From a virus: a stretch of 64,000 nt of DNA. This document shows, one piece after another, positions 14,655-64,000 of the stretch (the first letter of the stretch is position 1; every line of letters begins with the position of its first letter). The notes below the pieces were generated by a model. It made no database searches and had not been told where the DNA came from. It saw nothing but the letters and a program-made list of their open reading frames with translations. The position numbers and the translations under genes are program-made. The stretch is taken from positions 51,895-115,894 of the IMG/VR virus record IMGVR_UViG_3300042892_004016; one strand, written 5' to 3'.

Positions 14655-15314
14655 ATGGCAGCAGACCCATTCAATTCGGCAGGTGGATACACTTACAACA
14701 TACCTCCCGTACCGTTTTTAGACAGTACTGGCAATTTAACTGTGGCTAATGCCACAGTTTCAGGTAATATTATCGCCGGCGATACCATAACTGCAACTAC
14801 GTTTGTGGGAAACTTGGCGGGTGGATTTTCAATTGACGGCCCCAATACTGGTATCTTATTCAACAACGCAGGCTCTGCTGATCCAATTGGCACAGTAACT
14901 TACAGTGCCAGCACTGACACAGTTACAGTAGCAGGCAACTTGATTGCCAATACGTTTACTATAGGCGCAAACAACAACGAATTCAGCACCAGTCAAGTGG
15001 TATTTGCTACCACGAACAGCAGCGGCGTTAATCAGCAGTTACATTCAGTATTGGCCAGTACGATTTGCAGTATAGAGTACATGGTAATTGCCACAGATGC
15101 AATCAGTAATACCAGACAGACCAGCAAACTGATTGCCAGCGTATTGGGCAGTGATGTTGGATACTATGAATTTGGTACCATTGATATGAACGGTGGAGTG
15201 GGTGACTTTAAAGTAAATCATGACAATGGTAACATAACATTTACCGTGACCCCTATAACTGCCAATCCAACACAATATAAAATAATGATAACTTCTTATA
15301 AAGAAGGACTATAA
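14655..15314 (+). CDS. Virion structural/fibre protein (first gene of the array)
   Basis: N-terminal PFNSAGG motif. C-terminal ~100-aa beta module (SIEYMV..QTSKL..YYEFGTI) related to those of ORFs 15318 and 22384. Confidence 0.7.
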   Translation: MAADPFNSAGGYTYNIPPVPFLDSTGNLTVANATVSGNIIAGDTITATTFVGNLAGGFSIDGPNTGILFNNAGSADPIGTVTYSASTDTVTVAGNLIANTFTIGANNNEFSTSQVVFATTNSSGVNQQLHSVLASTICSIEYMVIATDAISNTRQTSKLIASVLGSDVGYYEFGTIDMNGGVGDFKVNHDNGNITFTVTPITANPTQYKIMITSYKEGL

Positions 15315-15317
15315 CAC

Positions 15318-17498
15318 ATGTCAATAAAGGCTCTAAATTCGGTAGCAGGATTCTCAGTAGGAGAAAATCCAAACATTGTTATTCTGGCCAATGGCGACAT
15401 TGTAACCAACAACGCCAATTTAACAGGTAACATTTCAACCTATGCAGTACTGAGTGACAACTACCTGTACAGCAATGGTGCTCCCTATGACTTTAGCAAT
15501 GCTGCAGGTAACGCAACTGAACTGCAATTCAACACTGCCAATGATTTAGATGCCAGCAACAAACTGACATTTAACAAAACCAGTGGCTTGCTATCAGTAG
15601 ATGGCAACATCTCTGCCAGATATTTTATTGGTAACATAACTGGTAATATATCAGGAAACTTAACAGTACCTGGTGTAAACCAATCTATAATTTATAACAA
15701 ACTGGGCAATGCTGGTGGCAGCTCACAGTTTACATTTGATGAAGACACTGGGCTGGTTACGGTTGATGGCAATATCTCCGCATACGATATCACCGCCAGC
15801 AATTCAGTCAGCGCAGTTACACTAGCTGGTTCATTAGTCACTGCACTGCAACCCAATATTACCAGTGTTGGCTTACTATCTAATTTAGCAGTAACTGGCA
15901 ACATTGCTGTTGGAAATGCAGTATTGGGCAATCTAGCTAGCGCCAGTTACTTCAGTGGTGATGGATACTTGTTAGCCAATGTTACTGGCGCCAACATCAC
16001 CGGTGTTGTAGCTAATGCCACAACCAGCGTAAATGCAACCACAGTAACAGGTGCAACTCAAACTGCAATTACTCAAGTGGGTCAACTTACCACATTGAGT
16101 GTACTTGGCGATGTAACTACTCAAGCCAACATAACAGCCGCCGGCAACGTTCAGGCATTTGACTTGACCACCAGTAACAGTATTACTACTCTGGGTCTGG
16201 CTTCATCAGACACACTGACCGTAGTTGGATTAGCCAACGTGGGGCAGCTCACCGCTAACACAGTAATTGGCAATCTGATACCAAATGTTGACAACACGTA
16301 CAGTTTGGGTAACTCTACTCAAGCTTGGAACAAACTGTATGTGGGCAGTGCAGGCATCCAATTGGGCGATAGCTTAATCACTGATGTAAGTGGCGTACTC
16401 ACCACTGGCAACGCCAACATAGTAAGTGCTCTGACTGCTAACAACATAACAGCAACCGGCAATATTACTGCACAGCGTGATGTGTATATTACTGGTAACC
16501 TTACAGTAAGCGGCAGCACAGAATATATTGATGTAACCAACTTAAGCGTAGCTGACCCAATTATATCATTGGGTGGCGCTGCCGAGGGCATGGGCGCACA
16601 GGCATATGATGGTCTAGATCGCGGGTTATTATTACACAATTACAAGCCTGATGGTTCGGCTGCACAAGATCAATTCTTTGGTTGGAAAACTGCTGATAAC
16701 GAATTTATCGCTGTCAGCAATGTAGCCGCGACTGCCGGTGAAACTATTATTGTAAATGAGTATGCTAACATCAGAGCCAATACTTTTATTGGTAATATTG
16801 CAGGACAAGTAACTACTGCCAGTCAAACTCAAATAACTCAGTTGGGCATACAGACAACATTAGAAATTGCTGGACTAACCACTGCCAATTCAATCACTGC
16901 CAATCTGTTGACAGTGCATGGTGTAACGTATCCTGTAGCAGACGGATTAACTGGACAAGTACTGACCACTGATGGCAGCGGCAGCTTGTATTTTGACACC
17001 CCAGTAACATCAGAATTACACAATGGCACCAGTAATGTAAAAGTTGATCTGAATAGTAATGTCACAGTAAGTGTAGCAGGTGTTGCCAATGTGTTAACTG
17101 TGACATCAGCTGGTGCTGATGTAGCGGGCGCATTTACTGCAGGCACAGTTAGCGCTGCAACCAGTGTACAACTGGGCATCACCAATATTGGTTGGGCAAC
17201 TGCCACTACCAATACTATCAGCCCCAATCAATTGATAGCTCAAATACCCACTGCCTCTGTTAGGGGCGTAGAGTTTTTCATCAAGGGCGAAGATGTGGCG
17301 GGTGCTAAATATAGTGTAGAGACCATAACAGTAGTGCATAATAACAGCACAGTGGATTATTCCAAATATGGAGCAGTAACAGTGGGTGGACTAACAGGGG
17401 TATTGAGTGTAACTTATGCAGATGATAGCATAAATCTGTTGGTATCACCTGGTAGTAGTAATGCAACTGTGTGGACAATGCAGTACAAAACGATTTAA
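15318..17498 (+). CDS. Fibre protein
   Basis: 726 aa with QPNITSVG repeats, a DPII..DRG knob module and a C-terminal beta module. Confidence 0.75.
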   Translation: MSIKALNSVAGFSVGENPNIVILANGDIVTNNANLTGNISTYAVLSDNYLYSNGAPYDFSNAAGNATELQFNTANDLDASNKLTFNKTSGLLSVDGNISARYFIGNITGNISGNLTVPGVNQSIIYNKLGNAGGSSQFTFDEDTGLVTVDGNISAYDITASNSVSAVTLAGSLVTALQPNITSVGLLSNLAVTGNIAVGNAVLGNLASASYFSGDGYLLANVTGANITGVVANATTSVNATTVTGATQTAITQVGQLTTLSVLGDVTTQANITAAGNVQAFDLTTSNSITTLGLASSDTLTVVGLANVGQLTANTVIGNLIPNVDNTYSLGNSTQAWNKLYVGSAGIQLGDSLITDVSGVLTTGNANIVSALTANNITATGNITAQRDVYITGNLTVSGSTEYIDVTNLSVADPIISLGGAAEGMGAQAYDGLDRGLLLHNYKPDGSAAQDQFFGWKTADNEFIAVSNVAATAGETIIVNEYANIRANTFIGNIAGQVTTASQTQITQLGIQTTLEIAGLTTANSITANLLTVHGVTYPVADGLTGQVLTTDGSGSLYFDTPVTSELHNGTSNVKVDLNSNVTVSVAGVANVLTVTSAGADVAGAFTAGTVSAATSVQLGITNIGWATATTNTISPNQLIAQIPTASVRGVEFFIKGEDVAGAKYSVETITVVHNNSTVDYSKYGAVTVGGLTGVLSVTYADDSINLLVSPGSSNATVWTMQYKTI

Positions 17499-62327: not shown

Positions 62328-62684
62328 ATGTCAGCACCAAATATTTTTACAGTCACCTCGTGTATCGCTAAAACAGTAGTACAGTTGGCTACAACTTCAC
62401 CTGTGGTATTTCTCCAAAATGCTGCAAGTTCAAACTCACTATACAAGATCAATACTATTATAGTCAGTAACAAAGCAGTGTCACCAGCCGACGTAACCGT
62501 AAATTTAGTGAGAAGTGCAGTATCATATCCACTCGCGTACACCGTTACAGTGGCAGATAAATCAACACTGGTACTACTGGGCAAAGACACTGCGCTCTAC
62601 TTAGAAGAAGCAGACAGTTTAAACATTACCAGTTCAGCCTCCACAGCATTGACCGTGATATGTTCATATGAGGAAGTAAGCTAA
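62328..62684 (+). CDS. 118-aa adaptor-like beta protein (MxAPN type)
   Basis: Paralog of ORF 47488. Confidence 0.72.
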   Translation: MSAPNIFTVTSCIAKTVVQLATTSPVVFLQNAASSNSLYKINTIIVSNKAVSPADVTVNLVRSAVSYPLAYTVTVADKSTLVLLGKDTALYLEEADSLNITSSASTALTVICSYEEVS

Positions 62685-64000
62685 TGGCGCGCGGCAGAGG
62701 CAACGGCGGAGTTATAGGTAACAAAACACAAACCAATACACGCACCGCCGGTGGCGTCAGATTATTGGGTGATAGCACTCTAACTCACAGTGAAGGAGCG
62801 CCGTTAGCATCACGCCGCAATCTGATGGAAGAAGTATCTCCTGATAATGGCAATTTTGATCCATATTATGACAAAGTTCCAGTACATTTTGGTGACGCTC
62901 TATATGATGATGACATCATGCGTGACCGAAGCCAGTATGGCTGGGACAAATACTACAGTCAGGATGCATATGCTAGAGTACCGCAGTTAGCCCAATTTGG
63001 GCCCAGGTATCAAGATTGGTGTACACACTTTCATGAAAGTAACTATTATACTGTTACCAGTTACTCACAATTAGTATTGGCCACCAGTAACTTTACCATT
63101 GAATTTTGGGTTCAATTGTGCCGCAATGATGCCACAGAGCATCATATCATGGGCAAGGGTGGCAATGCAGGCAGAACAGCAGGCACTGGTTGGTCGGTGT
63201 ATGTTTCTACTGACAGAAAGATTGGATTCTTTGATGCTGTTGGCAATTCATCTACACAATCAGCCACAGCATTAGTATTAGACACTTGGTATCACGTGGC
63301 AATTGTTCGTTCCGGTACCGGATCTAATTTACTCAAGATATACCGCGATGGTGTACTTGATGCCACTGGCACCAGTTCAGGCAACTTTGCAGACACTAGC
63401 AACTTTTACATTGGATGTGATAGAGTAGCAACAGGCTCCACCTGGTTTGGCGGCAATTTATCTGACTTAAAGATTTCAAATTCTGCACAATATGCTACTG
63501 CGTTTGCTAAACCCACCGCCCCATTGACCAGTACTGGCGCCGTGTTCTTTCATTCAATGCAGACTCCTCATCATGACGATATACCAACCAATACAGTGTT
63601 GGGCTACACTGTAACCCAATCAGATCGAAGTAGTCTTAGACTACTGGACGGTCCTCTTATAAACCACGCACTTAGACCATATCAGCATGGTTCTAACAGT
63701 GTCTATTCATGGGACACACAGGCTTATTTAAAATGCTACGATGCTAGTCCCACCAGTACTGCACTAAGATTGGGCACTGGCGCATTTACCATTGAGGCAT
63801 GGGTGCATACAACTAATGCTGACGGCAATCGGCAAACAGGAATATTAGGCAAGGGCACTGGAAACACAGGCGCGGGTGGAACTGGCTGGTCCCTTTATAC
63901 AAACACCAGTGGATATCTAGAATTTGCAGACACCGGATCCACTTTAACTGCATCCACAAATAGAATAGGCTGGTGTGGATGGTATCATGTTGCGGCAGTT
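62684..64000 (+). CDS. LamG/ConA-like tip protein, truncated by the window end
   Basis: Not in the ORF track (no stop in window). TAATG-coupled; MARGRGNGGVIG..DPYYDKV..FTIEFWV..WYHVAIVR..FTIEAWV. Confidence 0.75.
   Translation, partial: MARGRGNGGVIGNKTQTNTRTAGGVRLLGDSTLTHSEGAPLASRRNLMEEVSPDNGNFDPYYDKVPVHFGDALYDDDIMRDRSQYGWDKYYSQDAYARVPQLAQFGPRYQDWCTHFHESNYYTVTSYSQLVLATSNFTIEFWVQLCRNDATEHHIMGKGGNAGRTAGTGWSVYVSTDRKIGFFDAVGNSSTQSATALVLDTWYHVAIVRSGTGSNLLKIYRDGVLDATGTSSGNFADTSNFYIGCDRVATGSTWFGGNLSDLKISNSAQYATAFAKPTAPLTSTGAVFFHSMQTPHHDDIPTNTVLGYTVTQSDRSSLRLLDGPLINHALRPYQHGSNSVYSWDTQAYLKCYDASPTSTALRLGTGAFTIEAWVHTTNADGNRQTGILGKGTGNTGAGGTGWSLYTNTSGYLEFADTGSTLTASTNRIGWCGWYHVAAV

Follow-up and report, generated by a model that had tools for sequence, protein, structure and literature searches.

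The last 64 kb of the 115,894-nucleotide (nt) IMG/VR virus record IMGVR_UViG_3300042892_004016 (positions 51,895 to 115,894; this whole stretch of 64,000 nt is hereafter the window, and genes are named by their first nucleotide in it) carry a locus of ~50 kb with ~30 fibre genes, all on the + strand and downstream of head genes. The locus probably, though far from certainly, encodes a multi-component virion fibre apparatus of interchangeable parts, in which end-to-end adaptor joints are combined with lateral docking modules, and which would most likely sit on the tail. The motifs, the folds, the conservation and specificity of gene adjacency and the gene fusions from which this reading is built are direct observations. 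Three adaptor joints are specific, portable genetic units, and to judge from gene order and sequence patterns they very probably correspond to physical joints.

In the proposed assembly a stalk would end in a family-specific peptide, ..FG(x), ..(L/M)(L/M/G)G(A/M) or SxDFxF; the next gene would supply a free-standing adaptor of 118 amino acids (aa), a jelly-roll adaptor of 109 aa or a scaffold of the ARL type; and the third gene would encode the tip, or the next segment, with a matching conserved N-terminus. Stalk end, adaptor and tip N-terminus would together form the joint, and because the genes abut or overlap, the three proteins are probably made in fixed proportion. Lateral docking would depend on in-line modules of ~70 aa of the XD2-XD3 type, often a type-I and type-II tandem, giving side sites that would take further trimeric fibres by their N-termini. 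Proteins with both a module and a C-terminal joint would thus be branch points, and type-II modules would most likely take N-termini of the MTTKI type.

Adaptor joints as conserved genetic units

The joints of the window, with the XD-like modules that their stalks contain, are made up of the following genes.

23797..24603, + strand: fibre segment of 268 aa with tail ..SIDFGFK, upstream member of ARL joint 1
24622..25566, + strand: ARL adaptor of 314 aa, a LamG domain inserted in a small scaffold (Pfam Laminin_G_3 at aa 82-221, E 6e-12)
25596..29417, + strand: fibre of 1273 aa, start MAKLKSGTRVYG, end ..NSLDFIFD, bearing both ends of the ARL joint
29429..29659, + strand: mini ARL adaptor of 76 aa without the LamG insert, from alignment; a 75-aa equivalent exists in relative G004
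29689..32589, + strand: fibre of 966 aa with MALLQSGTRIYG start, type-I XD-like module at nt 30985-31212 (aa 433-508), TIG domain and Gly_rich_2 tip
43851..47486, + strand: stalk of 1211 aa, PxxLD-type start, type-I XD-like module at nt 45870-46097 (aa 674-749), tail ..MGLIFGG
47488..47844, + strand: 118-aa adaptor copy 1, starting 1 nt after the stop of stalk 43851
47846..49084, + strand: tip of 412 aa, start MARNRLNYGIIG, fn3 and Gly_rich_2 domains
49099..50988, + strand: stalk of 629 aa, PxxLD start, tandem XD-like modules at nt 50380-50826 (type I at aa 428-502, type II at aa 503-576), tail ..SPFLFL
51001..51330, + strand: 109-aa jelly-roll adaptor copy 1
51330..52202, + strand: tip of 290 aa with Gly_rich_2, its start overlapping the adaptor stop
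58283..58882, + strand: protein of 199 aa, MAFPTSP..GQ start, two XD-like modules, both type I (aa 35-109 and 109-184), tail ..HPFFMMG
58896..59225, + strand: 109-aa jelly-roll adaptor copy 2
59227..61839, + strand: tip with three LamG domains, starting MGVKLQ 1 nt after the adaptor stop (listed at 59173, the start being most likely 59227)
61861..62088, + strand: mini-stalk of 75 aa, PxxLD start, ITGGxxGQVLTxDG motif, tail ..MGLILGA
62328..62684, + strand: 118-aa adaptor copy 2, 239 nt after the mini-stalk
62684..64000, + strand: tip, start MARGRGNGGVIG, LamG repeats, cut by the window end

Related loci were drawn from IMG/VR, one set for each small protein (118-aa, 109-aa and ARL). Among the 118-aa loci the upstream gene (82-1987 aa, some loci being cut) ends in a ..FG(G/V) tail 1-3 nt before the adaptor ATG in 13 of 14 cases, and the downstream gene starts MRxRSN(Y/F)G(I/V)xG, with MVKHNG.. 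in L015 instead; L014, the one exception, has a spacer upstream of the adaptor and covers part of the window itself. The 109-aa family occurs in at least 479 IMG/VR viral contigs, and in the 80 retained loci that were inspected the upstream gene nearly always has a hydrophobic end such as SPFLLMGA, TVFLLGGM or DIFMMMGA (pattern ..(L/M)(L/M/G)G(A/M)), while the downstream gene mostly overlaps the adaptor stop and starts MA(I/L)(S/K)R.., MTVGRIP.. or similarly. The ARL joint, with the pattern of a C-terminal SxDFxF, an ARL adaptor and a fibre starting MAKLKxGTRxYG, is kept in ten loci (L098-L107) as SxDFKF(N), a LamG-bearing adaptor conserved with 24622, and a fibre of 1300-1700 aa with an MA(K/Q)LKD start; the counterpart of 23797 in these loci is a 151-203-aa gene with the end S(I/F)(D/E)FKF(N/K). 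The joint occurs twice in G004, with the same mini-adaptor and the same double arrangement of joint ends as in 25596. These three triads had been put forward as docking pairs in an earlier reading of the window made without database searches (the original prediction), and as gene arrangements all three were upheld by the related loci; the genes and motifs that it placed on the window, including the small open reading frames (ORFs) 29429, 58094 and 61861, were also where it had put them.

Adjacency is specific as well as conserved. Hydrophobic tails are found in 55 of 69 non-redundant genes directly upstream of an adaptor as against 20 of 851 others (Fisher p 6e-58), and in several of those 20 a single gene is inserted between tail and adaptor. 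Tail type follows adaptor family, 46:1 for the 109-aa proteins and 21:0 the other way for the 118-aa proteins (p 1e-16). The upstream stalks (42-1978 aa) are mutually non-homologous, consisting variously of collagen-like repeats, XD-type modules or GQVLTTDG..W motifs, and the tail is therefore portable. Likewise the paired joints of the window link a 1211-aa and a 75-aa stalk, and glycine-rich and LamG tips, so that simple block duplication does not explain the pattern. The stalks upstream of 109-aa adaptors in L031, L043, L079, L087 and L088 are collagen-like, with long G-x-T/G-P-T repeats and a hydrophobic tail, and the 109-aa joint is therefore also used by collagen-type fibres.

Complex prediction for the C-terminal 53 aa of 49099 (three copies) with the 109-aa adaptor (three copies), using their own alignments, gave ipSAE (interaction prediction score from aligned errors) values of 0.02 and 0.01, below the mark; run without controls, it speaks neither for nor against binding. 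The possibility that stalk and adaptor are fused by a programmed frameshift was rejected, the stop-start spacing being variable (0-30 nt, and 239 nt in one window copy). The latter spacer (62089-62327), between mini-stalk 61861 and its adaptor, is AT-rich, with stretches resembling TATAAT and an inverted repeat (GACACAGCC TGG CTGTGTC), and may represent a promoter/terminator or an insertion scar. An ITGG(T/S)xGQVL(T/K)(T/S)DGxGNLSW motif is seen upstream of XD-like modules or of hydrophobic tails (29689, 49099, 61861 and many relatives), and nearly the whole of the 75-76-aa mini-stalks consists of the N-terminal motif and this ITGG..GQVL..DG motif.

The small adaptor proteins

Identity is 43% between the two 118-aa proteins of the window and 50% between its two 109-aa proteins. 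A model of the 109-aa protein, with a predicted local distance difference test (pLDDT) score of 94.7, is an eight-stranded jelly-roll, for which a fold search returned generic single jelly-rolls (the trimeric KHP40 cement protein at Z 9.9, the HFTV1 turret, Ena spore-appendage subunits and nucleoplasmin) and no specific family that could be named. When the protein collection is clustered at 90% identity, the 109-aa family amounts to at least 7,974 clusters, all unnamed and without a Pfam domain; the 118-aa family is viral and also unnamed, and a Pfam search with the 109-aa, 118-aa and 76-aa proteins of the window found no family. Profile-profile comparison of the 109-aa and 118-aa families gave no significant relation (probability 2%), the weak alignment being in register. 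The 76-aa ORF 29429 aligns with both ends of the 314-aa adaptor 24622, whose middle is the LamG domain.

It has also to be considered that the 109-aa, 118-aa and ARL proteins are assembly chaperones with a role like that of Tfa or of T4 gp38/gp57, which would act on the neighbouring fibre or tip and stay out of the virion, with the terminal peptides as their recognition tags. A chaperone gene is typically found immediately 3' of the fibre gene that it serves, as in lambda Stf-Tfa, Mu S-U and T4 37-38; tight and specific adjacency fits such a role equally well, and no known structural family is matched by the adaptors in Pfam or PHROG. PHROG matches of the 109-aa protein are, besides families of 'unknown' function, the N-terminal parts of 'tail fiber protein' families. 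Natural fusions place the adaptor at the N-terminus of a Gly_rich_2 tip (P0122, P0123, P0141), and the longer 109-aa relatives include one tandem adaptor. In P0131, P0144 and P0150 an insertion of 160-270 aa directly follows the first strand (MATTYKVLGQ..) of a 109-aa-type adaptor, in parallel to the LamG insert of ARL adaptor 24622, and such proteins look like joints that display an extra domain. Among cultured phages the 109-aa type is found only in Pontimonas phage phiPsal1, where it is encoded by gene 021, is annotated, by similarity only, as a putative virion structural protein and is preceded by an 87-aa gene ending ..ALMLMGG; the 118-aa type is found only in Synechococcus phage S-SKS1, which has two successive joints of fibre, small protein and fibre, the small proteins being SWZG_00009 and SWZG_00011. 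Fusions, inserts and the contexts in cultured phages appear to favour a structural joint over a chaperone role, which is judged improbable.

Putative docking modules and the XD1-like end

In addition to the module-bearing genes listed above, two stalks of the window carry XD-like modules.

33039..37232, + strand: hub stalk of 1397 aa, PxxLD..FTF start, type-I XD-like module at nt 36585-36812 (aa 1183-1258)
55786..58092, + strand: stalk of 768 aa, PxxLD start, ending exactly with a type-II XD-like module at nt 57865-58089 (aa 694-768)

An iterated hidden Markov model (HMM) search within the window located exactly eight modules of ~70-75 aa (E 1e-26 to 1e-34), in just the genes named by the original prediction. 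There are two subtypes, of which type II, ending ..IQVRELxx, comprises the second copy in 49099 and the C-terminus of 55786; tandems of type I and type II are common in relatives. Pfam labels the modules as DUF4183 or the Phage_T7_tail N-terminal domain, with matches on 58283 at E 7e-9 and 1e-11. The tandem of 49099 (aa 428-576) was modelled with AF2 at pLDDT 90.3, and the best match of the model is XD2 of CBA120 TSP4 (7RFV aa 187-250; Z 10.3, root-mean-square deviation 1.4 A over 64 aa), both domains together aligning over 133 aa to TSP4 aa 185-334 (XD2-XD3). Next in rank are the N-terminal domain of T7 gp17 (Z about 9) and T4 gp10 aa 157-253 (Z 7.5), and Foldseek aligned the tandem model to 7REJ at E 2.7e-6. 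As modelled, then, the modules have the fold of T4 gp10 and of CBA120 TSP4 XD2-XD3, a known docking domain: XD2 and XD3 of TSP4, T4 gp10 and G7C gp66 have been shown by experiment to be docking sites for other trimeric tail proteins (PMC8825819; see also PMC10253068). The modules of the window occupy internal or C-terminal positions, not N-terminal ones after a baseplate anchor.

Hub stalk 33039 had been credited with a gp34-like C-terminal module, an assignment that found no support. Its last ~90 aa match TSP4 XD1 (TSP4 residues 80-178; match to 7REJ aa 88-176, E 7e-14), an XD1-like domain at about nt 36930-37229, and in a PDB sequence search with its last 210 aa, made at the sequence level with no fold search, the sole significant match was TSP4-N, with no gp34. 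A C-terminus of module followed by XD1 is found also in G001, G003 and G004. This end had been thought to receive the tip genes that follow it:

37325..43753, + strand: three MSDY tips of 506, 628 and 990 aa, each with a He_PIG immunoglobulin (Ig) stalk

The N-termini of the MSDY trio are indeed shared (BLAST of the first 60 aa, 1e-15 to 1e-27), but their adjacency to the hub is not conserved: in relatives an XD1-ending hub gene is followed by other gene types. After some XD-bearing hub genes in G001, G002, G004, L124, L127 and L133 there is another recurrent cassette that is absent from the window: a ~100-aa protein comes first, then a pair of about 270-610 aa each (starting MLVRYR.. and ML(C/V)..INP.., or MYIKLNF.. 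and MFIKL..), and last come proteins of 122 aa and of ~750-1200 aa.

N-terminal peptides and the modules that they follow

Seven later genes begin with one of two candidate docking peptides, five with PxxLD..FTF starts and two with MTTKI-like starts. The latter two are:

52219..55773, + strand: tip of 1184 aa with MTTKI start, TIG, He_PIG and four LamG domains
58094..58243, + strand: ORF of 49 aa with MATTV start, 1 nt after the stop of 55786

The 49-aa ORF resembles the first and last residues of MTTKI/LamG tips, as after in-frame loss of the tip body, and is apparently what remains of an MTTKI-type tip. Comparison of the 60 N-terminal residues by BLAST relates 43851 to 55786 (1e-18), 49099 to 55786 (1e-16), 33039 to 55786 (1e-6) and 55786 to 61861 (8e-7), and, among the joint genes, 25596 to 29689 (7e-7), 24622 to 29429 (2e-5) and 47846 to 62684 (8e-4). 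When the N-terminal parts of 52219, 37325 and 55786 were compared with PDB sequences, nothing was returned at E 0.1.

Loci with type-II modules were gathered by an IMG/VR scan with four type-II modules, and the next gene after a module gene was counted past its own adaptor and tip. By this count the next gene is of the MTTKI..N(I/L) type after 12 of 29 non-redundant type-II genes (with three near misses besides), as compared with 2 of 35 type-I-only genes and 29 of 1158 other genes (p 7e-4 and 2e-11). In these cases the upstream proteins vary from 198 to 2091 aa and several end exactly at the module, as does 55786, which in the window is directly followed by the MATTV remnant. With kinship ignored and motif classes written by hand, this bias is no more than suggestive of a pairing of type-II modules with MTTKI-type N-termini. 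Equal numbers of type-II modules and MTTKI starts (2:2, 3:3, 3:3, 2:2 and 2:2) are anecdotal and hinge on the wording of the motif. The PxxLD..FTF starts have no comparable support, 6 of 35 as against 61 of 1158 with a loose pattern, and their assignment to modules, based on counts, is weak.

Branched apparatus or independent fibres

A number of points weigh against a branched and jointed apparatus. Every physical contact, the stoichiometry and the position in the virion are deduced, and the small proteins may serve in assembly as chaperones and be no part of the virion. The adjacency statistics ignore contig kinship, the loci were found by way of the adaptors or modules themselves, and the N-terminal motif classes are hand-written patterns. 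When the profile of the eight modules was compared with PDB sequences, TSP4 and gp10 were not among the best 60, the matches including the phage Kp7 tail adaptor (1e-7) and the P-SCSP1u fibre (1.5e-4); the same jelly-roll occurs in neck and adaptor proteins, and a shared fold is no proof of a shared function. Modules occur in runs of 3-5 per protein in relatives and could be plain shaft beads. Counts of modules and N-terminal peptides are 8:7 in the window, 8:5 in G001, 7:6 in G002 and 6:5 in G003, and no one-to-one rule emerged from counts in four relatives.

Several of these points would be accommodated if the locus encoded many independent fibres, tandem paralogues and shuffled cassettes in which each trimer is held at the baseplate or a common site by its own N-terminus, the modules are spacer beads, and shared ends come from duplication and recombination hot-spots instead of mutual docking. 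Such an explanation, considered unlikely on the whole, covers the genes nearest the head genes:

14655..23781, + strand: proximal set of four fibre genes (14655, 15318, 17525 and 22384), three with an FNSxxG(F/Y) start

Here a C-terminal module of one gene had been taken to dock the start of the next. The C-terminal beta modules of 14655 and 15318 do match (E 1e-5), while that of 22384 is below detection at 1e-3, and 14655 has the FNS start with no module-bearing gene upstream of it; tandem paralogues suffice, and independent fibres fully explain a set in which 14655, 15318 and 17525 share an N-terminus and 14655 and 15318 a C-terminal module. The order of the proximal genes directly after the capsid gene is repeated in G001 and G004, and a Pfam search with these genes found no family. 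Five stalks with one N-terminal motif, as if for one kind of site, the module runs and unequal counts given above, and the view of XD1 as a spacer in TSP4 (PMC8825819) all agree with independent fibres. Left unexplained by them are the joint travel of C-terminal peptide, small protein and next-gene N-terminus across unrelated stalks and tips, the 75-76-aa mini-stalks with little beyond an N-terminal motif and a tail, and the MTTKI bias after type-II modules.

The original prediction as a whole is hence partly supported. Its putative orthogonal docking pairs gain support from the specificity of tail for adaptor, with the type-II/MTTKI bias in addition, and not from the proximal genes or the hub and MSDY tips; its test of adjacency across relatives separates the adaptor joints, which go beyond block duplication, from the proximal set, which fits tandem paralogy.

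Genome context and position in the virion

CheckV estimates the completeness of the record as 28%, and the genome of this uncultured jumbo myophage is therefore roughly 400 kb. Every long ORF of the window is on the + strand. Genes for portal, maturation protease, a scaffold-like protein (a member of a PHROG family without assigned function) and the major capsid protein occupy the first 14 kb, ahead of the fibre genes, and the capsid protein is ~65% identical to its counterparts in Pseudomonas phage PA5oct, Vibrio phage 2.275.O, Serratia phage BF and related phages; a megablast search with 21 kb of the fibre locus found no nucleotide match among deposited phages. In the overlapping contig L014 the last tip gene (62684) is 1268 aa in full, and the locus ends after it with genes of 133 and 144 aa and then ribonucleotide reductase. 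Directly 3' of the capsid gene of the window is a 288-aa ORF with a GTG start (12501-13367), which contains ..IYKTTHINGKYYIGRHS.. and looks like a GIY-YIG-type homing endonuclease inserted between head and fibre genes; in G001 and G004 the capsid gene is directly followed by fibre genes with no ORF between.

Since the locus begins directly after head genes, the fibres might decorate the head or neck (whiskers, or a 'hairy' capsid) instead of forming a tail receptor-binding apparatus, and neck and portal-proximal proteins of T5, DT57C and phage 812 are among the structural matches of the XD-like fold. This placement is very unlikely. These cassettes also occur in two smaller relatives, G002 and G003, where they adjoin genes read, by sequence only, as baseplate, sheath and tube; the closest structural matches of the modules are attachment domains of tail spikes, baseplates and tail fibres, and the sequence match of XD1 is to a tailspike anchor region.

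Tips and other genes of the locus

The tips of the locus carry glycine-rich (Gly_rich_2) or LamG-repeat domains and not depolymerase beta-helices. Matches above the curated Pfam cut-off were obtained to Gly_rich_2 (PF21722) for 29689, 37325, 38870, 47846 and 51330, and to Laminin_G_3 (PF13385) for 24622, 40781, 52219, 59173 and 62684. The MSDY tips end in Gly_rich_2, Gly_rich_2 and three LamG domains respectively, with TIG detected in 40781 only. One further small gene lies between a glycine-rich tip and the hub stalk:

32605..32967, + strand: 120-aa protein of phrog_7759 (unknown function), start MAHFAQID

Proteins of this type are frequent in related loci, usually directly 3' of glycine-rich tips or 5' of a new cassette, and 32605 may be a tip-specific helper.

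Relation to known fibre systems

The long tail fibre genes of phage T4, 34-35-36-37(-38), are in the order of assembly, with the joint proteins gp35 and gp36 encoded between the half-fibre genes. The locus would share with T4 a gene order mirroring assembly and small separate joint proteins, and differs in that its adaptors are of the ~110-aa jelly-roll type and are paired with a hydrophobic C-terminal peptide. In phage T7 the gp17 N-terminal domain fixes the fibre to the tail; to this domain (PF03906) and DUF4183 the modules are related by the Pfam matches on 58283 and by structure, but T7 has a single N-terminal domain where the window has eight internal or C-terminal copies.

Branched complexes on gp10-like domains are established for CBA120 and G7C, and in CBA120 XD2 and XD3 bind other trimeric spikes (PMC8825819). 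The window resembles the CBA120 TSP1-4 and G7C gp66/gp63.1 systems in that its modules superpose on TSP4 XD2 and on the XD2-XD3 tandem, and the C-terminus of 33039 is homologous in sequence to XD1. Unlike TSP4-N, with its AD-XD1-XD2-XD3 order, the window has its modules inside or at the C-terminus of long fibrous stalks, its hub 33039 has the order of module then XD1, and a profile of its modules gave no sequence-level match to XD2/XD3 among the best 60 in PDB; moreover its tips are Gly_rich_2 or LamG domains instead of beta-helix depolymerases, and there are additional free-standing adaptor genes.

The scale of the locus has precedents that the original prediction overlooked, in two jumbo myophages of Klebsiella that have 9-14 fibre proteins. 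For the nine of RaK2 (gp526-534), among which gp528 has the gp10-like XD2/XD3 branching domain, the argument that 'eight XD domains suffice' has already been published (PMC10253068), and for phiKp24, with fourteen fibres, hyperbranched layers have been proposed (PMC9700779). In both, as in the window, several T4 gp10-like docking domains are thought to assemble the fibres. The window differs in having no nucleotide similarity to deposited phages, a PA5oct-like capsid and another tip chemistry, and adaptor-mediated head-to-tail joints are not part of the published models. For KP32, deletion and swap experiments have demonstrated the pairing of a branching domain in receptor-binding protein (RBP) 1 with a conserved 29-aa N-terminal peptide of RBP2 (PMC13352976). 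The idea that a gp10-like branching domain takes a short peptide at the N-terminus of its partner is common to both systems, whereas the peptides of the window (PxxLD..FTF, MTTKI..) have so far shown no sequence relation to that of KP32, and their partners are putative. The overall idea of branched gp10-like fibres is thus not new. The new part is the free-standing connector families; no description of free-standing adaptor joints was found in the literature searched on branched phage fibres.

Significance

Branched receptor-binding complexes explain how some phages reach many hosts, and gp10-like docking modules are already in use for plug-and-play phage engineering (PMC13352976, PMC13579863). 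In the window this gp10-like principle would recur in a jumbo phage that is uncultured and unrelated to them, and whose tips are lectin-like and glycine-rich. It is a tentative and rather doubtful further step to regard the triads of tail, adaptor and tip as general orthogonal connectors, of at least three non-cross-reacting types, the 109-aa type alone being present in thousands of environmental phages, that together with subtype-specific pairs of XD module and peptide (type II with MTTKI) would make up a combinatorial code. With such a code, phages from the 30-kb siphovirus to the 400-kb jumbo type could exchange stalks and tips and would not have to evolve their interfaces anew. The joints are also present in two cultured phages, S-SKS1 and phiPsal1, which makes the idea directly testable. 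In environmental viromes the connector proteins are abundant; they lack both a Pfam family and a functional name, and their partner peptides are simple and easily recognised. Should the joints prove physical, they would aid the annotation of thousands of 'hypothetical' fibre genes and would provide orthogonal connectors for joining fibre parts.

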